Assembly (NCBI GenBank): GCA_018334675.1
Contig: JAGXLL010000006.1
Location: 43,356 to 107,355 of the forward strand
Length of the DNA: 64,000 bases
Source: Bacteroidales bacterium
GTDB taxonomy: Bacteria; Bacteroidota; Bacteroidia; Bacteroidales; UBA12077
Direction of reading: 5' to 3'
The translations under genes were made by a program, and so were the position numbers. Position 1 is the stretch's first letter. The number at the start of each line of letters is the position of its first letter. This document shows, in pieces, positions 1,254 to 63,055 of the stretch. Below the pieces are notes generated by a model. It worked only from the letters and a program-made list of their open reading frames with translations, did no database searches and was not told the DNA's origin.

Positions 1254-4232
1254 TTAATTGTTATTCTGAGGTTTATAGACAGCTCCCTTGCTGTTTTTCC
1301 CATCGATTCGAGTTTTTAAGGGGTTTTCAAAGCAGATGTGCTTGATGTATTCATTCTCATAGGTGGGTTTGCAGGCATTGAGATAGTCCAGGTCGTAATA
1401 TCCTTCCTTCAGATAGGGGTTGATCGTGAAATATCCGATTCGGAAGGAGGTCAGATTCTGGAAGAAATGGGTGCCTTGACTGGGATCGATGCGGTAATTA
1501 TCCAGACCCGATTCAACGATCACGCGTGCCTGGGAGATGTAGGCCCATTTAACGGGTATACCCAGGCTTGGATCGGCGGTTCCCCATCTTCCGGGACCAA
1601 CCAGGATGTAGTTTTTGTCTTCCTTCTTGAATTGGTCATTCAGGTTGTACAGTTCATAGGCAATGTCCTTGCTTTTCAGGGAGGAGAAATTTTCGGGTTT
1701 CACATAGACAATGTCATAGATATCCTCGAGTTTGCCGTTGCCCAGGGCCGAATCGGAATAGATCAGTGTATCCTTCAGGTTCACCTCGGAAAGGTCGAAG
1801 TCGTTGTCTTCCTCATTATCGACGATGGGTCGTATCTGCAGGAAATTGAATATAATGGGTTCATCTCTGGGTATGTTCAGATTGACGGCAAATTCGATCT
1901 CTACGGGTGTTCCCATCTCGCGCTGGAAGCCTTCCAGCAGGTCCTGCAGGATGCTATCCAGTGGGATAACTCTGTGCTTGAGTACATTGGCAAAGGTGAT
2001 GATCTTCTTGCCTTTATAAATGGTTCCTTCCCGCAGCATATTGTTCTCCATGTCGTAGGTGGAAGCGGCATGCTTAAGGGAGTGGTCCTTTTCAGCCTCC
2101 TTGATCTTCAATCTAAGCAGGTTGACGCCTTCGTCGGTGGAAGGAACAAAATTCTCCGGGGTCAGGTCGAGGGCATAGAAGTATTTTTGTGTGTCCTTCA
2201 GGGCCATCTGGGGGGTAGAGAGTTGAATAACCTTGTTGGGGTGTTTGGGTGAGAAACGCAGGGCGACACCTCCGTCGACAATCTGCTTGCCGAGGCCAAA
2301 TGCAATGTTGGCAATGCCCTCGTTGGATTTTTCCGGTTCTACAGGATAGAAGTTGATGGAACGGGCTACTCCCGAGAGGGTAGGATAGAACTTGTCGCGA
2401 TAGTTGGAACCGCAGACCTCCTGGAGGATGATGCCCATCTTCTCCTCATCGATCACATTGGAGGTGGCTGACATGTAGGCCTTGCTGTTCTGATAGTATA
2501 CGGAGGCATATACGCTTTTGATGGCGTCGGAGAGCAGTTGGATCATCCGGGTATTGTCATCCACCCGCGGGACCATATAGGTGTTGTAGATTCCCGCAAA
2601 AGGCTGGTAGTGGGAGTCCTCCAGCTTAGAGGATGAACGTACAGCAATGGGATTCTTGATTACCGAAACAAATGCGTAAAGGTCCTGGTAAACGCGGCTG
2701 GGGAGGCGGGCATCCACGAAATGCTTCAGGATCTCTTCGTCGGAGCGGTCGGATAGGCCAATCTTATAGAGGTCATTGCCTTCCATGAACTCGTCGAAAA
2801 TATCTGTACTTAGCACGACCGTGCGGGGGATGGTAATGATAAGGTTGGGGTATTTGTCGAACAGCTGATTCTTTTTGATGATGGAGTTGGCAAAGGCCAG
2901 TCCCCTGGCTTTTCCCCCAATCGAGCCATCACCGATGCGGGAGAATATCAGGTATTCGTCGAAGCGATTCTTGTCGAACTTGGCGATGACTCCCCGGCCT
3001 TTGTTCATCCGGTAGCTGGAGATGGCTTTAAAGATGTAGCTGCGCACATCGTCTACGGAGTCGAAATCGCTTAGCTTCAGGTATTTGAAAAGCCGCCCGA
3101 TGGGGAAGATGGCTCTGGCATTGAGCCATTTGGAAAGATCGTTCCGGCTGGCATGATATTCCAGGGAGTCGTCCGGTATCTCCAATATCATCTGCTGCAG
3201 GGTTTGCAGGTCGCATGCCCTTCCAATGGGTTCCATGGTTTGGGGGTCACTGAAAACAAATTCCCCAAAGGCAAATTGATTGATGATATAATTCCTGAGC
3301 TCGATGGAGAGTGATTTAGAATATTTGTGCAGAAAGCCTGCATTGTGTTTTTTAGCCAGTTTTCTGTTTTCTTCATCCGATGATTGGAGCAGGAATGGTA
3401 TAAATTCATCGTGGCTGCGCACTTGCTCGCATAAGCGAATACCTGCATATTTATCGCGGACGCCGTTCCTCTTATATGCTATATCGGAAATCACCCCCAG
3501 CAGGTTGTGTTTGTATTTCTCGAACAGTTCAACGGCCTCTTCATAAGTGGTAGCCAGCAGGATCTTGGGTCTTCCTCGCATCCTCAGCATTCGCTGGTGT
3601 TCATTGAGGGCTTCCCTTACGTATTCCTTGGATTGCTTAAAGATGATCTTATAGATGTTGGGCAGATAGGAGGATATGTACCGGATGGAGTTCTCTACCA
3701 GCAGTATGGTCTGAACCCCCACCACTTCCACATCGTGTTCCACATTCATCCTGTCCTCGATCAGTTTGATGATGGCCAGCAACAGGTCGGCATTGCCCAG
3801 CCAGCAGAATACGTAATCGATGGCGCTTAAATCTTCATGCTGGATTCGCATGGATACTTCCCGGGAGAAGGGGGTAAGCACAACAATGGGAATGCCTGGA
3901 TAGCCCTTTTTAATATCATTGGCCAGGGAGAAAGTATCGTATGTGCCGATGGTGAGCATGGTGATCACCAGATCGATCTTATCGTTCCGGAGTTTCTCGA
4001 AGGCCTCTTCTGCTGAGTTGGCCATCACAAAGATGGGGGGATATCTCAAGTTAAGAGATACGTATTCATTGAAGATCTGCTCATCGATCCTTCCGTCCTC
4101 TTCCAGCATAAAGCTGTCATAGCTGCTGGCGATCAGCAACACTTTGTGGATGCGTTTTTGCATCAGCAGGTTGAAGGAGGTGTCGTTAAAATCGATCTTG
4201 AGCGAATCCTGATAGTTCTTAAAAAATGTCAT
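1254..4232 (-). CDS. Multidomain protein: pseudo-receiver, REC-like domain, PPDK_N (PEP/pyruvate-binding ATP-grasp) and a conserved C-terminal module; function unknown
   Basis: 992-aa ORF with ATG start. The first CheY-like fold lacks the acceptor Asp (IDLVITMLTIG). The second has one (LLGVISDIAY, LLQSS, HKYS). ATP-grasp signatures are GGKARGLAF, AVRSSSKLEDS and FAGIYNTY. The C-terminus reads ILVGPGRWGTADPSLGIPVKW...GTHFFQNLTS. I saw no TSH swivel motif and no PEP-utilising TIM barrel. Confidence 0.8.
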   Translation of the reverse strand: MTFFKNYQDSLKIDFNDTSFNLLMQKRIHKVLLIASSYDSFMLEEDGRIDEQIFNEYVSLNLRYPPIFVMANSAEEAFEKLRNDKIDLVITMLTIGTYDTFSLANDIKKGYPGIPIVVLTPFSREVSMRIQHEDLSAIDYVFCWLGNADLLLAIIKLIEDRMNVEHDVEVVGVQTILLVENSIRYISSYLPNIYKIIFKQSKEYVREALNEHQRMLRMRGRPKILLATTYEEAVELFEKYKHNLLGVISDIAYKRNGVRDKYAGIRLCEQVRSHDEFIPFLLQSSDEENRKLAKKHNAGFLHKYSKSLSIELRNYIINQFAFGEFVFSDPQTMEPIGRACDLQTLQQMILEIPDDSLEYHASRNDLSKWLNARAIFPIGRLFKYLKLSDFDSVDDVRSYIFKAISSYRMNKGRGVIAKFDKNRFDEYLIFSRIGDGSIGGKARGLAFANSIIKKNQLFDKYPNLIITIPRTVVLSTDIFDEFMEGNDLYKIGLSDRSDEEILKHFVDARLPSRVYQDLYAFVSVIKNPIAVRSSSKLEDSHYQPFAGIYNTYMVPRVDDNTRMIQLLSDAIKSVYASVYYQNSKAYMSATSNVIDEEKMGIILQEVCGSNYRDKFYPTLSGVARSINFYPVEPEKSNEGIANIAFGLGKQIVDGGVALRFSPKHPNKVIQLSTPQMALKDTQKYFYALDLTPENFVPSTDEGVNLLRLKIKEAEKDHSLKHAASTYDMENNMLREGTIYKGKKIITFANVLKHRVIPLDSILQDLLEGFQREMGTPVEIEFAVNLNIPRDEPIIFNFLQIRPIVDNEEDNDFDLSEVNLKDTLIYSDSALGNGKLEDIYDIVYVKPENFSSLKSKDIAYELYNLNDQFKKEDKNYILVGPGRWGTADPSLGIPVKWAYISQARVIVESGLDNYRIDPSQGTHFFQNLTSFRIGYFTINPYLKEGYYDLDYLNACKPTYENEYIKHICFENPLKTRIDGKNSKGAVYKPQNNN

Positions 4233-14768: not shown

Positions 14769-15086
14769 ATGTCTTGGTTTTACCTGATTATTGCCGGAAT
14801 TTTTGAAATCGCCTGGGCCATGGGCATGAAATTCACCGGTGGATTCTCCCGTTTGTGGCCTACCCTGGGAGTATTGGTCGTTATGGGATTGAGTGTATAT
14901 TTTCTCTCGCTCGCAGTAAGAACCCTGCCGGTGGGTACTGCCTATGCTGTATGGACAGGCATTGGCATTGCAGGCACCTCCATTCTGGGAATGGTGTGGT
15001 TCAATGAACCGGTGAGCCTGGTCCGTGTGCTGTTGATCTTCCTGATATTGGCATCGGCGGTTGGATTGAAGCTCCTTCCCCAATGA
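14769..15086 (+). CDS. sugE: SMR-family small multidrug/guanidinium exporter
   Basis: 105 aa with 4 TM segments. MSWFYLIIAGIFEIAWAMGMK carries the conserved membrane Glu, and AYAVWTGIG is present. Confidence 0.85.
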   Translation: MSWFYLIIAGIFEIAWAMGMKFTGGFSRLWPTLGVLVVMGLSVYFLSLAVRTLPVGTAYAVWTGIGIAGTSILGMVWFNEPVSLVRVLLIFLILASAVGLKLLPQ

Positions 15087-15232
15087 TTGTTTTCGGTTTT
15101 ACCCACAGCCCGGCAAAACAACGCATTGAGCCTGTTGCATCCCCTCTTTTTACAGCCGGTCTTGCCAGCCGGTTGTTGTAGTTAAGAAAATTTTGGGCTT
15201 GATTTAATTGTTAGAGTTTTATCCTGTATTAT

Positions 15233-15537
15233 TCATACGCTTATCTTTTATTTAATGATTTGGCCGTATGGAACCTGCATGAAATAATCATGTCCTTGTT
15301 GTGTAAGTTCTTGGATGCAGGTTTCATACGGTTATCTTTTTATTAATATATTGGCCGTATGGAACTTCCATGATAACCATGTCTTTTTGTGTTAAGGTAT
15401 CATGAAAGTTTCATAAGATTATATTTTATTTAATATTTTGGCCTTATGTAACTTACCATGACAAAATAATCATCTCCTTTTGTGATGTTAATAATTATTT
15501 TGTCATGGACGTTTCATTTGTTTATAAATATTTTTCC
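15233..15537. repeat. Tandem array of three ~87-103 bp hairpin-forming units plus a partial fourth
   Basis: Units are 15233-15323, 15324-15410 and 15411-15513, with a partial unit at 15514-15537. Hairpins are 15264-15331, 15355-15419 and 15442-15520. See findings for detail. Confidence 0.8.
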
Positions 15538-15701
15538 ATTTTTTATGAATAATGCAGGTTATGAGGTATTGTAATTTATACACAACGATGTGGCTGTTCG
15601 GAATCCCCCTGCAGGAGGGCCGGTTATAAGTCAGAAAATTTCACCGGTTAATTTATATAAAAAAGATCGGAGAACATTAAGCATGGTATCGATTAATGTT
15701 A

Positions 15702-15709
15702 TACATTTG
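15702..15709 (+). promoter_or_regulatory. Candidate Bacteroidota -7 box (TAnnTTTG) for the RRM gene
   Basis: TACATTTG is an exact match to TAnnTTTG about 130 nt upstream of the ATG. I found no clear -33 TTTG. Confidence 0.3.
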
Positions 15710-15838
15710 TAAGAAATTAAGGAATAGATGTTTGGCCCAATTTAGTGTGTCCCCGCGGAGGGGGCCTTCTTTATTGCGACTTGCAGCAATTTCCTTATTA
15801 ATCATTATGTATTATTACTTTTCTAAATTTTTTTTATC

Positions 15839-16090
15839 ATGAACATTTATGTAGGAAACCTGGACTATAGTCTACAGGAAAGTGAATTAGAAGAAATCTT
15901 CCAAGCTTATGGAGAGGTTGCATCTGTCAAGATTATTAAGGACAAGTATACCGGCAAGGCAAAGGGCTTTGGTTTCATTGAGATGCCGGATGACGGGGAA
16001 GCCAACACTGCTATACAGGAGCTCAACGGCAAAGAGGTGAATGGAAGGCAGATGAAGGTGAACCAAGCCAGGCCGCGAAGGGAGGCCTAA
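15839..16090 (+). CDS. RRM-type RNA-binding protein
   Basis: 83 aa with RNP2 NIYVGNL and RNP1 KGFGFIEM; a single RRM fold with a short basic tail. Confidence 0.9.
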   Translation: MNIYVGNLDYSLQESELEEIFQAYGEVASVKIIKDKYTGKAKGFGFIEMPDDGEANTAIQELNGKEVNGRQMKVNQARPRREA

Positions 16091-16162
16091 TTCTCTTAAT
16101 GCGAACCGGGTCCCTGTATTTCGGGACTGCACCGTGACAACATCTACTTTTGAAGATATTTA

Positions 16163-16196
16163 CCGGCATCCATTGATGGCATGCCGGTTTTCTTTT
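16163..16196 (+). terminator. Intrinsic terminator between the convergent RRM and tonB genes
   Basis: CCGGCATCCAT-tg-ATGGCATGCCGG (16163-16187) is followed by TTTTCTTTTATT. Confidence 0.55.
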
Positions 16197-17076
16197 ATTG
16201 CAGGCGGAAGTAATAAGTTATGGTACCTTTTTGATAGGCCGGTGCATCGGGTTTGGGGTCGAACCTGGCATTAAGGGCGGCTTTCCGGGCAGCGCGCAGG
16301 AGTTTGTCGTTCAGGGTGGTCGAGCCCTTCATGCCGGCTTCGGCTTTCTTAACATTGCCCTGTTTGTCGACTGTAATTTCGACAACTACTTTGCCTTCCA
16401 CCTGATATTGATATTCAGGTTTGGGCAGTGACTCGGGGTTTCTTCCTTCCAGGGTGAAGTCGATACCTCCCATGCCTCTGCTGTCAACATTGGCATGGTT
16501 GTCGGAATAGGGAGTGCCGCTTTCTCTTCCCTGGTTGCCTTCGCCCTGGGTCTCGCCTTCGGACTCCCCTGATTGCTCTTTGCTTTTCCCGGAGTAAAGA
16601 GCCTGCTCGTTGACCTGGCGTTCAGGTTCCTGTTCTTCTTCCTGTGTGTCCTGCTGCTCCTTTTCCTGGTTTTGTTCTGTGGTCTGCTGTTTTGTGTCTT
16701 CCTGCTCTTGCGGGCGCTCATCTTCATTCTGACTGGTTTCCTGAGTTTTCTCTTCCACCGCCGGTGCCTCCTCAAAATCCTGTGTCTGCACCTGTTCTTC
16801 CGTTTCTTTCGGAGCCTCCTGCTGGGAAGTCTCGGGCGGGCTTTGCCGGGGCTGGGTTTGTTCCTGAGGCTGGCTTCTCTGCTGTTGAACCGCCTGCCTC
16901 AACTCTGTACTACCAGCTGCATCAGGAACATTGCCGAAATTGATCATAATACCTTGCTCGGCTGGAAGAGGCAGAGGAGTGGAAAAGCCTAAAAATATGA
17001 ACAACAAGGCGATCACCCCATGAAAAATCAGGGTTCCGATAATGCCATTTTTATGTTCCTTGATGAAACGAAGCAT
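16195..17076 (-). CDS. tonB: Energy transducer TonB with a long Gln/Glu/Thr-rich linker
   Basis: 293 aa with an N-terminal TM (GIIGTLIFHGVIALLFIFLGF), a ~150-aa acidic low-complexity linker and a C-terminal TonB_C-like domain (GKVVVEITVDKQGNV...ARFDPKPDAP..QKGTITYYFRLQ). Confidence 0.8.
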   Translation of the reverse strand: MLRFIKEHKNGIIGTLIFHGVIALLFIFLGFSTPLPLPAEQGIMINFGNVPDAAGSTELRQAVQQQRSQPQEQTQPRQSPPETSQQEAPKETEEQVQTQDFEEAPAVEEKTQETSQNEDERPQEQEDTKQQTTEQNQEKEQQDTQEEEQEPERQVNEQALYSGKSKEQSGESEGETQGEGNQGRESGTPYSDNHANVDSRGMGGIDFTLEGRNPESLPKPEYQYQVEGKVVVEITVDKQGNVKKAEAGMKGSTTLNDKLLRAARKAALNARFDPKPDAPAYQKGTITYYFRLQ

Positions 17077-32974: not shown

Positions 32975-33946
32975 ATGGCAAAAATAAAATATCGTTTCGA
33001 CCCCCACACACTTACATATAAAAAAATTAACCGCACCTCCCGAAAGAACATGCTCCAGGCGCTTGTTTTCTTTTCTATATCTATACTGATGGCTGTAGCC
33101 TTTCATCTATTTTTTACTTCCCATCTTGCCACTCCCAAAGAACAGCGTCTTCAAGAGAAAAATGAATCTTTGCAGTTCAAATATAAAATGCTCGAAAGAA
33201 AGATCAGCCACGTCAATGAAACACTGAATAAGATCGAGCAGAGGGATGACAATCTGTACCGACCCATCTTTGAACTCGAACAGATTCCCAATCAGTTCCG
33301 GGAAGCAGGAGTGGGTGGTGTCAACCGCTATGATGAGTTGAAGAAATATTCGCAGTCGGAAAACATCATTTCGGTGGCCAAGAAGTTGGATAAGGTTAAG
33401 AAAAAGCTTTATGTGCAATCGAAGTCGTTCGATGCCATCAAGAAGGAAGCCAGGGACAAAGAGTCCATGATCGCACATATCCCAGCCATACAGCCCATTG
33501 CCATTAAGGATTTTAGAAGGATCAGCGATTATTTTGGCAGGAGGCGGGACCCTTTTACCGGTAAGATCCGCATGCATCGGGGAATGGATTTTACAGGTCC
33601 TGTAGGCACTGATATTTATGCTACGGGTGATGGTGTGGTAGTCAAGGCTGACTATTCTGCCTATGGATATGGCAAGGAGGTGGTGATCGATCATGGCTAT
33701 GGCTATAAGACCATTTACGCTCATCTGCATGAAATTACAGTGGAACCGGGCGAGCAGGTGAGCCGGGGTGAAGTGATCGGCACCCTGGGAAATACCGGCC
33801 GTTCAACCGGCCCCCATTTGCATTATGAAGTGCGTAAAGGCCGGCGGGCCGTGGATCCCTTCAACTACTATTTCAACGATATTACTGCAGAACAGTATGA
33901 AAAGATGATTGCCGAGTCGGCAAAAAGCAGAAAACCCATGGACTAG
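32975..33946 (+). CDS. M23 family metallopeptidase (membrane-anchored, coiled-coil linker)
   Basis: 323 aa with HRGMDF, a GDG loop, VVIDHGYGYKTIYAHL and GNTGRSTGPHLHYEV. Confidence 0.85.
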   Translation: MAKIKYRFDPHTLTYKKINRTSRKNMLQALVFFSISILMAVAFHLFFTSHLATPKEQRLQEKNESLQFKYKMLERKISHVNETLNKIEQRDDNLYRPIFELEQIPNQFREAGVGGVNRYDELKKYSQSENIISVAKKLDKVKKKLYVQSKSFDAIKKEARDKESMIAHIPAIQPIAIKDFRRISDYFGRRRDPFTGKIRMHRGMDFTGPVGTDIYATGDGVVVKADYSAYGYGKEVVIDHGYGYKTIYAHLHEITVEPGEQVSRGEVIGTLGNTGRSTGPHLHYEVRKGRRAVDPFNYYFNDITAEQYEKMIAESAKSRKPMD

Positions 33947-33949
33947 CCT

Positions 33950-34921
33950 ATGGCAATGTACAAATACAAATACAATCCACGTACGGTAAAGTATGAAAAG
34001 GTGAAGCTTACCTGGAAGGATAAGCTTCTCCGTTTTTTAACTTATTTTGCCGCCACGCTGGTACTGGGTCTTTTGTATAACCTGGTTTTCACCGCTTTCT
34101 TTGATACCCCCAAGGAAAAAGAGTTAATACGGGAGAACAATCAGCTGGAGCTCCAGTATGAGATATTGAACAAGAAGTTTGATTTGGTGGATAAGACCCT
34201 CAACGACCTGCAAAGGCGGGATAACAATATTTACCGGGTGATCTTTGAAACGGAGCCGATCCCTTCTTCCGTCAGGAAAGCGGGTTTTGGTGGCTCTGAA
34301 AGATACGATGAGCTCAGTGGGCTGGAGGATTCCGAGTTGGTGATCAAAACCGCCAGCCGACTCGACAATCTTTCCAAGCAACTCTACATCCAGTCCAAAT
34401 CCTATGATGAGATCATCAACAAGGCGGAGAGCAAAGAAGAGATGCTTGCCTCTATTCCGGCTATACAGCCGGTCTCCAACAAGGATTTGACGCGCACTGC
34501 CTCCGGCTACGGATGGCGGATCCATCCCATATACAAGATCAAGAAATTGCACGAAGGCATGGATTTTACGGCACCCACCGGCACAGAAGTCTATGCTACG
34601 GGAGATGGTGTGGTGGAAACCGTTAAGAGCTCCTATCGGGGTTACGGCAAAAGGGTTGTGATCGACCATGGTTTCGGATACAAAACCCGGTATGCACATT
34701 TGAACAGCTTCAACGTAAGACGTGGCCAGGAGGTTAAACGGGGAGATGTGATCGGCTATGTTGGCAATTCGGGCCTTTCCACTGCACCCCACCTTCATTA
34801 TGAAGTGGAAAATGGCAACGAAAAAGTGAATCCCATTCATTACTATTTCAATGACCTTTCGCCCGAGCAATATGAGAAGATGATATTTATTTCTAGCAAC
34901 AGCGGACAATCCTTCGATTAA
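33950..34921 (+). CDS. M23 family metallopeptidase, tandem paralog of the preceding gene
   Basis: 323 aa, colinear with 32975-33946 (HEGMDF, VVIDHGFGYKTRYAHL, GNSGLSTAPHLHYEV). The gap between the two genes is 3 nt. Confidence 0.85.
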   Translation: MAMYKYKYNPRTVKYEKVKLTWKDKLLRFLTYFAATLVLGLLYNLVFTAFFDTPKEKELIRENNQLELQYEILNKKFDLVDKTLNDLQRRDNNIYRVIFETEPIPSSVRKAGFGGSERYDELSGLEDSELVIKTASRLDNLSKQLYIQSKSYDEIINKAESKEEMLASIPAIQPVSNKDLTRTASGYGWRIHPIYKIKKLHEGMDFTAPTGTEVYATGDGVVETVKSSYRGYGKRVVIDHGFGYKTRYAHLNSFNVRRGQEVKRGDVIGYVGNSGLSTAPHLHYEVENGNEKVNPIHYYFNDLSPEQYEKMIFISSNSGQSFD

Positions 34922-39967: not shown

Positions 39968-40383
39968 AATGACTTGTGTTTATTTAAACAAATTATAAAT
40001 TACAAAAGTAATGAAAATCTTGCAACGATGTTTAGGACATAGCCCAAAACATTTCTGGATATGGGTGGTCTTTAATGATCTGACCATACGGCTCTTGCTG
40101 TATCTTCAACGGATTATTTTGCCGGAAAATTGCAGGACTGTGGGCCTCATTTGAAATCGATGATCTAAATAACATTGTTATAGGCATCGAAGATGAGCAA
40201 GATGCCATCTGGCAAACGAGCTTTCCCGGTAATCCGTTTCAGGGTTTCATTAAACTGAAAGGGAGCCGGGGCGGATTGAGTCATGGAAAAGTCCCTTCGG
40301 CAGTGTGAACTGCATCAGGTTCAAAGGGTATGATCTCATCCCGTGGTTGGGCACCCCCCGTTTGAGTACTTCAAAGATATAAG

Positions 40384-62165: not shown

Positions 62166-62548
62166 TTTTGTAAAAGTTTAATCCAAACCATATAACAGAA
62201 TTCTTTAATTTTACTTTTTATGGTCTACCTCACCGCCGCTTGATTTACCGATGCGGATCTTACCGGGATCTCCGTAAAAATCAATATCATGTACTGGATC
62301 TTATTTTTTCACTGAATAATCAGGCAAAATGTATTGCTTGATCAATTTACAATAGATCAAAAGTGAGAATAAAATCGTAATTTTTTGTGATTTTTTGCCG
62401 TGAACTTCTACTATAGGTTAAGAGATGAAAAAATTAGCCGAACCAATTTAATATGAAACCCGCATGAACAGTCCTGTACAACGAGGATAGGATATAGCAT
62501 GCGGGTTCTATGAGGCCAGTGGAATAAATACATGAAATACCGATCTAA

Positions 62549-63055
62549 ATGGAGCCTGACCTGAGAGAAGAATTCATACAAATGATCACCCGTTACCAGG
62601 GGATTTTGCATAAAGTATGCCTGATCTACTTTCACAATGAAACAGACAGAAAGGACAACTTTCAGGAGATCCTCTATCAATTGTGGAAAGCCTATCCGGA
62701 TTTACAGAAAAAGGGCAGCATGGGTTCATGGATCTACAAAATAGCGATCAATACATCCATTGTCAAAATTCGCAAGGATTCCAGGTATGTTCATTCCCCG
62801 GTGTTCCCGGAAATACCCGATTCTTCTGATTTCCTGGGGCAGTATGCCTGGAATGAAAATGTAAGACTTCTGATATCAGCCATTCAATCTTTAAATGATA
62901 TGGATAAGTCCCTTATGTTCCTCTACCTGGAGGAAAAGAGCTACCAGGAAATAGCTGATATCACAGGGATTTCTGTTTCCAATGTGGGAACCAAAATCAA
63001 CCGCATCAAATCACAGTTAAAAACCACTTTAAAAACATTGAATCATGGAGAATAA
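62549..63055 (+). CDS. RNA polymerase ECF-type sigma-70 factor
   Basis: 168 aa. Region 2 reads FQEILYQLWKAYPDL...WIYKIAINTSI. Region 4 reads MDKSLMFLYLEEKSYQEIADITGISVSNVGTKINRIKSQL. Confidence 0.8.
   Translation: MEPDLREEFIQMITRYQGILHKVCLIYFHNETDRKDNFQEILYQLWKAYPDLQKKGSMGSWIYKIAINTSIVKIRKDSRYVHSPVFPEIPDSSDFLGQYAWNENVRLLISAIQSLNDMDKSLMFLYLEEKSYQEIADITGISVSNVGTKINRIKSQLKTTLKTLNHGE

Follow-up and report, generated by a model that had tools for sequence, protein, structure and literature searches.

REP, BIME and REPIN sequences are abundant extragenic hairpins that are thought to be moved in trans by a single HUH enzyme, RAYT. The BOX elements of Streptococcus pneumoniae and the MIRUs of Mycobacterium are modular, foldable intergenic repeats with variable tandem internal units; MIRUs adjoin flanking genes at their start and stop codons or overlap these codons, carry short in-frame open reading frames (ORFs) and lie inside operons. 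Hairpins also define the sites of integron attC and CALIN arrays and of Xer-dependent elements that act as folded single-stranded DNA, with a conserved AAC/GTT base, a variable upper stem and a preference for one strand. Elements of the IS605 family have gene-less derivatives, the PATEs, and TTCAT and TTTAT are documented transposon-adjacent motifs (TAMs) of this family (PMC10055086). Within the Bacteroidota, the MITE (miniature inverted-repeat transposable element) of Porphyromonas gingivalis is reported to be a non-autonomous element with tandem repeats that is truly bounded by terminal inverted repeats (TIRs) (PMC4596501). Here we describe an array of hairpin repeats in a 64,000-nucleotide stretch of a Bacteroidales genome (contig JAGXLL010000006.1 of assembly GCA_018334675.1, positions 43,356 to 107,355; hereafter the window), located upstream of a gene for an RRM RNA-binding protein. 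The array is best explained as non-autonomous mobile DNA that inserted recently and is polymorphic between strains, and not as an RNA device of the RRM gene. It belongs to a family of small non-autonomous hairpin repeats whose unusual traits are docking on start codons and a single hairpin.

Three head-to-tail units of ~90 nt occupy positions 15232-15517 and are followed by a partial fourth, as had been proposed in an earlier note made from the DNA letters alone. Tandem Repeats Finder reported 15232-15461 with a period of 87, 2.6 copies, 79% matches and a score of 263, a repeat search of the window found four in-register copies spaced by 91, 87 and 103 nt, and a profile search placed the units at 15232-15327, 15323-15414 and 15410-15516 (E-values of 2e-25, 9e-17 and 8e-14). 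Neighbouring units are only 75-79% alike. On the plus strand, unit 1 (15237-15327, 91 nt) comprises an AT-rich spacer, the hairpin ATGGAAC-CTGCAT...ATGCAG-GTTTCAT and a TTTCAT end; unit 2 (15328-15414, 87 nt) has the stem CTTCCATGATA/TATCATGAAAG, and unit 3 (15415-15517, 103 nt), with the stem CCATGACAAAATAAT/ATTATTTTGTCATGG, represents a subfamily with a long AT-rich stem. Partial unit 4 (15518-15558) retains the spacer start and the 3′ arm only; the locus L019, which has remnants of the 3′ arm only, resembles it. Hairpin 1 (15264-15331) lies across the junction of units 1 and 2, where its 3′ base GTTTCAT↓ACGG (the arrow marks the junction) takes the first 4 nt of unit 2, hairpin 2 (15355-15419) lies across the junction of units 2 and 3, and hairpin 3 (15442-15520) has a degraded base. 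Inverted repeats were found at these sites (15264-15287/15308-15331, 15358-15375/15398-15415 and 15456-15473/15491-15508), and the inner stems quoted in the earlier note are present and complementary. Folded as RNA on the plus strand, hairpin 1 reaches -32.1 kcal/mol (z-score of -5.9 against dinucleotide shuffles), hairpin 2 -18.7 kcal/mol (-2.6) and hairpin 3 -22.0 kcal/mol (-5.2), and a T-rich run follows each of them. The units hold no conserved ORF, the loop length differing by 1 nt among family members. A short upstream ORF or peptide on the gene-sense strand was rejected as a candidate since these 1-nt loop differences, and early stops in other subfamilies, break any frame.

The comparison of filled and empty sites bears directly on the nature of this array. 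Four metagenome contigs of the same species, from a microbial-mat project (L001-L004), encode an identical RRM protein and lack the array. They are 97.3-97.9% identical to the window on both sides, with the alignment running up to 15222 and resuming at 15559, and their empty site reads gttagagTTTTAT↓gaggcag. In the window the filled site reads gttagagTTTTAT↓CCTGTATTATTCATACGC...AATAATGCAGG TTAT↓gaggtat. A further contig (L005), which is 99.8% identical to the window and starts inside unit 3, has the filled site as well. The inserted block covers 336 nt of the plus strand (15223-15558), with three full units and one partial unit and a GC content of 26-32% in 200-nt windows; the gap between the SMR and RRM genes measures 752 nt with the block and 412 nt without it. 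TTAT stands at both ends of the block (15219-15222 on the left and 15559-15562 on the right) and is single in the empty site, so that the window/L001 alignments share these 4 nt (2721-2724 in L001). The whole block is bounded by 15-nt inverted termini, the left one CCTGTATTATTCATA at 15223-15237, which includes the TTCAT (15232-15236) preceding unit 1, and the right one TATGAATAATGCAGG at 15544-15558. They match at 14 of 15 positions and form an outer 15-bp stem when the entire insert is folded as single-stranded DNA.

A second, unbiased pair of sites, found via the RRM orthologs, bears out this pattern. The locus L266 is filled by exactly one 95-nt unit, placed after the CAT of the start codon of a DUF3179 gene and reading GCCGTTTTTCAT↓ACGATT...GCAGGTTTCAT↓AGC; its empty counterparts are GCCGTTTTTCATAATTCC in L269 and L276 and GTTTCTCATAGCTCC in L267. 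In this case TTTCAT(A) stands on both sides of the insertion, as TTAT does in the window. Megablast among the fetched loci gave no further filled/empty pairs, and the synteny of L011 and L027 provided no usable empty site.

The gene downstream of the array (15839-16090) does encode an 83-aa protein with an RRM_1 domain (E-value 1.7e-23), in agreement with the earlier note. The functional link which that note drew, with the array as a partner RNA, a decoy or an autoregulatory leader of the RRM gene, did not survive: a near-identical strain of the same species with an identical RRM protein has no array, and among nine groups of RRM orthologs that we scanned for units (85-93% amino-acid identity, the same TonB/ExbD neighbours), a unit was present upstream of the gene in two and in none of the other seven. 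In one of the unit-free groups the SMR-RRM gap measures just 116 nt. The two occupied groups are themselves unlike. In P0002 the unit of L266, missing from L267, is docked on the start codon of the neighbouring DUF3179 gene, 454 nt from the RRM gene, and in P0013, the lineage of L180, a unit of another hairpin type lies 297 nt upstream of it. Counting the window, there are three independent insertions, each at its own position, and their unit types and copy numbers differ. The suggested check for synteny between arrays and RRM genes was negative, none of 34 other element-bearing Bacteroidota loci scanned for it containing an RRM gene. Two of nine is above the few percent expected per intergenic region, a baseline that is a rough estimate and with which the excess is not significant; the long AT-rich spacer upstream of the RRM gene may simply tolerate insertions. 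What emerges is a dispersed MITE-like unit unrelated to RRM genes, an outcome which the earlier note itself had regarded as fatal to its proposal. We are thus confident that the array belongs to a dispersed mobile repeat unconnected to the RRM gene, and its interest as a riboregulator candidate is low.

The surroundings of the RRM gene deserve a brief description of their own. On the plus strand at 15749-15775, ~65 nt upstream of the RRM start codon, a GC-rich hairpin GTCCCCGCGGAGGGGGC is followed by a T-run and is nearly identical in L001, the strain without the array; a role as terminator or attenuator of the RRM leader is conceivable, and it would halt transcripts that arrive from the array. 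Directly upstream of the gene, 190 nt (15649-15838) show ~75% identity to positions 5106-5289 of L180, a distant relative, and the sequences farther upstream are not alignable. A conserved leader or promoter region that is separate from the repeats may belong to the RRM gene itself. On the other side, the minus strand (16195-17076) encodes a TonB_C-domain protein whose central part is a long low-complexity region with many E, Q and T residues, and this gene adjoins the RRM gene in all ortholog loci, with ExbD and MotA/ExbB. In several relatives (L180 3385-3771 and the ortholog loci L266-L282) the SMR gene is inverted and the DUF3179 gene lies between SMR and RRM, which means that lineages differ by rearrangements upstream of the RRM gene.

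A genome search was made with a 17-nt degenerate pattern derived from the unit as query, and real units were confirmed by blastn or nhmmer. The pattern gave at least 115 matches in genomes, and the confirmed units come mostly from two metagenome-assembled genomes (MAGs) in GTDB, 'uncultured Bacteroidetes bacterium SRR6193124_bin.32' and 'bin.34', where they are spread over dozens of contigs, with single loci in four further Bacteroidales or Bacteroidetes MAGs. Matches in unrelated taxa had no blastn or nhmmer similarity beyond the pattern and are best read as chance. A hairpin-specific pattern detected at least 120 loci in a few JGI metagenomes; no true units were present in the viral contigs of IMG/VR, and carriage by phages or plasmids was rejected accordingly. 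A census by profile search over all Bacteroidota loci (MAGs and metagenomes), in which matches on the same strand were chained when within 120 nt, counted 258 units in 182 arrays from about 150 loci: 119 single, 51 double, 11 triple and 1 quadruple. Being chained on one strand in this way, the arrays are head-to-tail.

Dispersed copies make clear what the elementary entity is. A single unit of ~95 nt runs from ACGGTTAT... to ...GCAGGTTTCAT, without TIRs, and consists of an AT-rich spacer and then a hairpin whose base is fixed and whose upper stem varies freely but keeps its complementarity, with no ORF; in full, a typical single copy reads xxTTTCAT↓ACGGTTATCTTTTATTTAATAATTTGGCCGT ATGGAAC CTGCATG..loop..ATGCAG GTTTCAT↓xx. 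Unit 1 of the window is 86-96% identical to such dispersed single copies on other contigs, and the subfamily of unit 3 is also dispersed elsewhere (90-94% identity in L041, L102 and L236, for example). Many copies of the family are truncated. The spacers measure 35-85 nt, without an ORF, and in some arrays of bin.32 the 35-nt spacer occurs alongside B and C, two other types of ~80 nt, in one orientation throughout. Examples of such mixed arrays are found on the minus strand of L053 (4814-5182), L115 (284-614) and L055 (73-299); the ~80-nt spacers share the start ATAACTTAATTAACAGTTTGTA and each such module ends in a hairpin of the same design. The window itself holds one more copy, a solitary diverged unit on the minus strand at 62453-62537 (ATAGAAC-CCGCATG...CATGCGG-GTTTCAT, nhmmer E-value 7e-7). 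The earlier note did not mention this copy, nor the inverted termini and the TTAT duplication of the 336-nt block. Position 1 of L005 and the ends of the loci L071, L041 and L034 lie inside a unit, and the repeats probably break short-read assemblies of these genomes.

The sites at which the units are found have a common sequence. Among 113 arrays with an evaluable left flank, the flanking 6-mer was TTTCAT in 77, ATTCAT in 16 and CTTCAT in 4 (97/113 together), and the orientation of the element is fixed relative to this motif. The base preceding TTTCAT in the flanks is not conserved. In 66 of these arrays (58%) an ORF of 80 codons or more has its ATG at the flanking CAT, read on the opposite strand, compared with 58 start-like sites among all 483 ATGAAA sites in these loci (12%). 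Eight flanking ORFs were compared with Pfam (a CysK-like PALP enzyme, MetRS, HisB, an FtsX/MacB permease, saccharopine dehydrogenase, Rex, a ParA/4Fe-4S protein and a P-II protein), and since the domains begin at residues 1-8 in seven of them and at residue 19 in the permease, the flanking ATGs are true start codons, and of unrelated genes. The solitary unit of the window departs from this pattern, the ATGAAA that flanks it beginning 17 nt upstream of an ECF sigma-factor gene (62549-63055; Sigma70_r2 and r4_2 domains) and not exactly at its start codon. The 6-mer in the flank and that at the end of the element are unequal in ~40% of the units (ATTCAT vs TTTCAT, for example); therefore, either any duplication is at most 5 bp or the end motif belongs to the element.

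The units stand directly 3′ of TTTCAT and have TTTCAT as their own end; every insertion therefore recreates the target, and head-to-tail stacks arise. The TTTCAT sites at which this is tolerated would mostly be start codons, TTTCAT being the complement of ATGAAA (Met-Lys), and a unit so placed would separate the promoter from the ATG, run antisense to the gene and put its A-rich end in the place of the gene's leader. No special targeting has to be assumed for this bias because ATGAAA starts make up a sizeable share of all TTTCAT sites, roughly 15-20% in such a genome by a back-of-envelope estimate, and because selection would purge intragenic insertions. Read in the sense of the gene, the unit ends in ...AAATAAAAGATAACCGT before the ATG. 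The Bacteroidota use A-rich leaders for initiation that is independent of a Shine–Dalgarno (SD) sequence. Furthermore, the gene-sense hairpin is not followed by a U-tract and the displaced upstream ATGAAAC is paired within the stem, and these two properties could explain why units are tolerated before genes such as metG.

The structure of the hairpin was assessed in an alignment of 20 distinct short-stem hairpins that represents all subfamilies. Over its 14 bp, the stem is 92% paired, and slid registers collapse to 23-48% pairing. Two-sided compensatory changes occur at three stem positions (C-G/U-A; U-A/C-G; G-C, C-G, A-U and U-A), and the covariation score of 0.139 compares with 0.059 in shuffles, none of 500 shuffles reaching the observed value. 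In the long-stem subfamilies many positions differ and complementarity is kept. The conserved base and the co-varying upper stems described in the earlier note thus hold across the whole family, which also displays the stem-preserving covariation that its authoring model had asked for. A conserved loop motif, CAT.TCCTTGTTGTG, accompanies the stem. A G·T pair in the ATGGAAC/GTTTCAT base is present in 19 of the 20 aligned hairpins, and because of this conserved pair one strand folds better than the other: it is the plus strand of the window in 43 of 48 unique hairpins (mean of -19.6 vs -15.2 kcal/mol), which is the strand antisense to the flanked genes.

Beyond the hairpin, the A(C/A)G that follows the flanking TTTCAT co-varies with the C(G/T)T that precedes ATGGAAC, with 64 C:G and 29 A:T combinations vs 12 discordant ones (93 concordant/12 discordant, Fisher 2e-14, uncorrected for phylogeny); GTG:CAC, GCG:CGC and ATG:CAT are rarer combinations. 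This implies that CGT-ATGGAAC pairs with the junction TTTCAT↓ACG, and the hairpins that had been drawn across unit boundaries in the earlier note correspond to this junction-spanning stem. The full CGT-ATGGAAC stem is available at the left flank, within tandem arrays or at a circular joint and nowhere else. At the right end of the unit there is one strong hairpin; the left end has no more than 10 bp of pairing, between TTTCATACGG and CCGTATGGAA on either side of the AT-rich spacer.

Any mechanism has to account for the observed dispersal, insertion polymorphism, TTTCAT target and target-fixed orientation, and for head-to-tail stacking that regenerates the target, stem covariation and strand asymmetry. 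We propose that one DNA strand folds, that CGT-ATGGAAC would serve as an internal guide by pairing with TTTCAT↓ACG at the left flank or at an end-to-end joint, and that a trans-acting, structure-recognising enzyme would cut and join after TTTCAT, in a manner comparable to that of the 'peel-and-paste' elements of the IS200/IS605 group and of integron attC sites. Insertion of this single-strand, hairpin-guided kind is a tentative idea to which we would give a little less than an even chance, both the mechanism and the class of enzyme being deduced from the structure of the units. A mobile repeat combined with such a mechanism is nevertheless probably the best overall explanation of the data.

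Several points weigh against the hairpin-guided model. No HUH transposase was detected by tblastn in ~1.1 Mb of element-bearing Bacteroidota loci with reconstructed query sequences of IS608 TnpA, IS200 TnpA and an Escherichia coli RAYT, and no recurrent ORF lies beside the arrays, 1343 clustered ORFs yielding only housekeeping paralogs (ABC ATPases, response regulators and SDRs). Canonical IS200/IS605 elements possess a pair of imperfect subterminal hairpins and are cleaved outside the stems, whereas the units have one hairpin and their TTTCAT is part of its stem. A few subfamilies dominate the covariation counts, which so represent few independent events. A TAM combined with an end motif encoded by the element, without duplication, and a true 4-7-bp target duplication may both fit the data. 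The insertion in the window is atypical in its target TTTTAT, in a 10-nt leader CCTGTATTAT before the first TTCAT and in its end GGTTAT, and the 15-nt inverted termini of the block with the TTAT duplication resemble either a classical event with TIRs and a target-site duplication or a nested rearrangement. Finally, the units may have an additional role at the RNA level. With respect to the atypical insertion, the termini of the block resemble the 5′ arm of the unit itself in both orientations, and it may be a nested or rearranged copy, or a block moved by another route. Right ends of TnpB/IscB elements were also considered for the units and rejected, no recurrent ORF in the same orientation being present upstream of the arrays.

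A bolder formulation is that the units form an undescribed class of single-hairpin, TIR-less mobile elements that home to ATGAAA start codons, replace the leader by their A-rich end and sequester the displaced ATG, and that are mobilised by an unrecognised single-strand-specific enzyme or have been co-opted by the host as portable leader modules tuning the translation of dozens of genes in SD-independent Bacteroidota. We consider this formulation doubtful.

The main alternative mechanism is site-specific recombination of the attC or Xer type, with hairpins and a 6-bp core. A circular or folded unit would recombine with any TTTCAT core via a tyrosine recombinase, regenerating the core and building same-orientation arrays with spacer types A, B and C. 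The identical 6-bp core at both junctions would be expected on this basis, as would arrays that mix 35-nt and ~80-nt spacer modules in one orientation and a junction-spanning stem that is complete only in tandem or circular form. The AAC/GTT core in the base of the hairpin, with one strand folding better, and the variant target TTTTAT that accompanies the variant end GGTTAT in the window point the same way. However, the attC consensus RYYYAAC/GTTRRRY is matched, on reading the sequence, only in its AAC/GTT core (4/7 positions), the crossover is not at G↓TT since the base before TTTCAT varies in the flanks, and the modules lack ORFs. Moreover, no multi-copy ORF family resembling a recombinase was seen beside the arrays, in a screen that was not designed to detect one. 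Recombination of this type appears unlikely, though less so than the explanations that follow.

A classical cut-and-paste MITE would be a more familiar solution. A DDE transposase would have moved the 336-nt block via its 15-nt inverted termini with a 4-bp TTAT duplication, the units would be an internal minisatellite, and a host insertion sequence with CCTGYATTATTCATA ends would be expected. The 14 of 15 matching positions in the termini and the TTAT on both sides suit this scheme, and a MITE with an internal minisatellite is reported from P. gingivalis, also in the Bacteroidota (PMC4596501). Furthermore, the units themselves are small, non-coding, multi-copy, dispersed and strain-polymorphic in the way of MITEs. 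Nevertheless, no other element with these termini occurs in any sampled locus, and the termini were accordingly discarded as the mark of a MITE family. It is the single unit, devoid of TIRs, that is dispersed, and the insertion in L266 is exactly one unit with TTTCAT on both sides. The likeness of the termini to the 5′ arm of the unit in both orientations suggests instead a split or nested hairpin. Taken as a whole, a classical MITE is improbable.

The notion of a functional structured RNA, whether as cis-regulatory leader modules, as small RNA genes or as sites or decoys for the RRM protein kept for regulation, draws on the covariation of the stem, the conserved loop motif and G·T pair, the position of units in the 5′ leaders of many genes and their presence upstream of the RRM gene in three lineages. 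Set against this are the presence and absence of the array between near-identical strains that share an identical RRM gene, and the three RRM-upstream insertions, unlike in position, type and copy number, beside seven of nine ortholog groups with none. The flanked genes are functionally unrelated, many copies are truncated, and it is the strand antisense to the flanked genes which folds better. On reading the spacers we saw no conserved Bacteroidota -7 box TAnnTTTG, and a promoter/terminator scan gave no informative matches, its sigma-70 model not being applicable to Bacteroidota. The array was unmatched in a search of the whole window against Rfam at gathering thresholds, and at E-values up to 10 the region 15000-16200 gave only chance matches to microRNAs far below the gathering scores. 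The RNA explanation is therefore even less probable than a classical MITE. The earlier note had preferred a structured RNA or a protein-recognised hairpin over decayed coding DNA: coding decay is indeed excluded and a protein-recognised hairpin is a fair description, and it is the part on the RRM gene that lacks support. A local tandem duplication of an intergenic hairpin by slippage, or decayed coding sequence, in either case without mobility, would account for the head-to-tail arrangement and the 75-79% identity between neighbours but is scarcely credible, given that units 1 and 3 are closer to copies on other contigs (86-96% and ~94%) than to their neighbours, that copies are dispersed by the hundreds and that no reading frame is conserved.

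Other features were recorded apart from the hairpin family. Rfam recognised a single curated RNA family in the window, a TPP riboswitch on the minus strand (40275-40368; 59.7 bits vs a gathering score of 54.3). Two adjacent paralogous genes on the plus strand (32975-33943 and 33950-34918) share ~66% DNA identity over 333 nt and have a homolog in L138. The locus L034 contains an internal tandem repeat of ~62 nt (2970-3249, 95% identity) that is unrelated to the hairpins.

For annotation, the array illustrates that covarying hairpins beside a gene can be selfish DNA and not a riboregulator, and that one comparison with an empty site settles the matter. The TTTCAT target coincides with the commonest start-codon context, so that transcription and translation of essential genes such as metG have to proceed through one to three units. 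If the base of the stem is indeed an internal guide for the cut site, the unit would be about the smallest self-contained substrate for hairpin-guided DNA transposition, and the identity of the enzyme would tell a stripped-down relative of IS200/IS605 from another kind of element. Use of the elements as strain markers is a further possibility.

Our search of the literature found no described family with this target or behaviour, and the units share features with each of the systems mentioned at the outset. REP sequences and REPINs differ in being 20-40 nt long, GC-rich, marked by a GTAG motif, arranged in inverted pairs and located mostly 3′ of genes, in contrast to units that are ~95 nt long, AT-rich (26-32% GC in the array), head-to-tail and 5′ of genes; the units thus do not qualify as REPs or REPINs. 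BOX elements and MIRUs are unrelated to the units in sequence and in host, BOX carries separate end modules, A and C, and neither is tied to TTTCAT. The MITE of P. gingivalis differs in that, in the present family, the repeat itself is the dispersed entity. The attC arrays resemble the units in that they too are made of same-orientation modules whose site is complete only at the joint between neighbours. The units nevertheless do not match the attC consensus and have no cassette ORFs, no integrase was seen in the loci, which were not screened with an integrase profile, and their targets are hundreds of dispersed 6-mers, unlike the one attI or dif site of the attC and Xer systems. A further resemblance is to the PATEs, the gene-less derivatives of IS200/IS605 elements moved in trans by the Y1 HUH enzyme TnpA. 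Like the units, they are small, non-coding and devoid of TIRs, insert 3′ of a fixed penta- or hexanucleotide and possess a hairpin on one strand, with a guide-like segment beside it that is complementary to the cut site. Their autonomous partners are often absent nearby. Unlike the PATEs, the units have one hairpin instead of two and an end motif inside the stem, and no TnpA was found by tblastn in the ~1.1 Mb of element-bearing Bacteroidota loci; the end motif is identical to the target, hence the head-to-tail arrays, with most copies lying on start codons.

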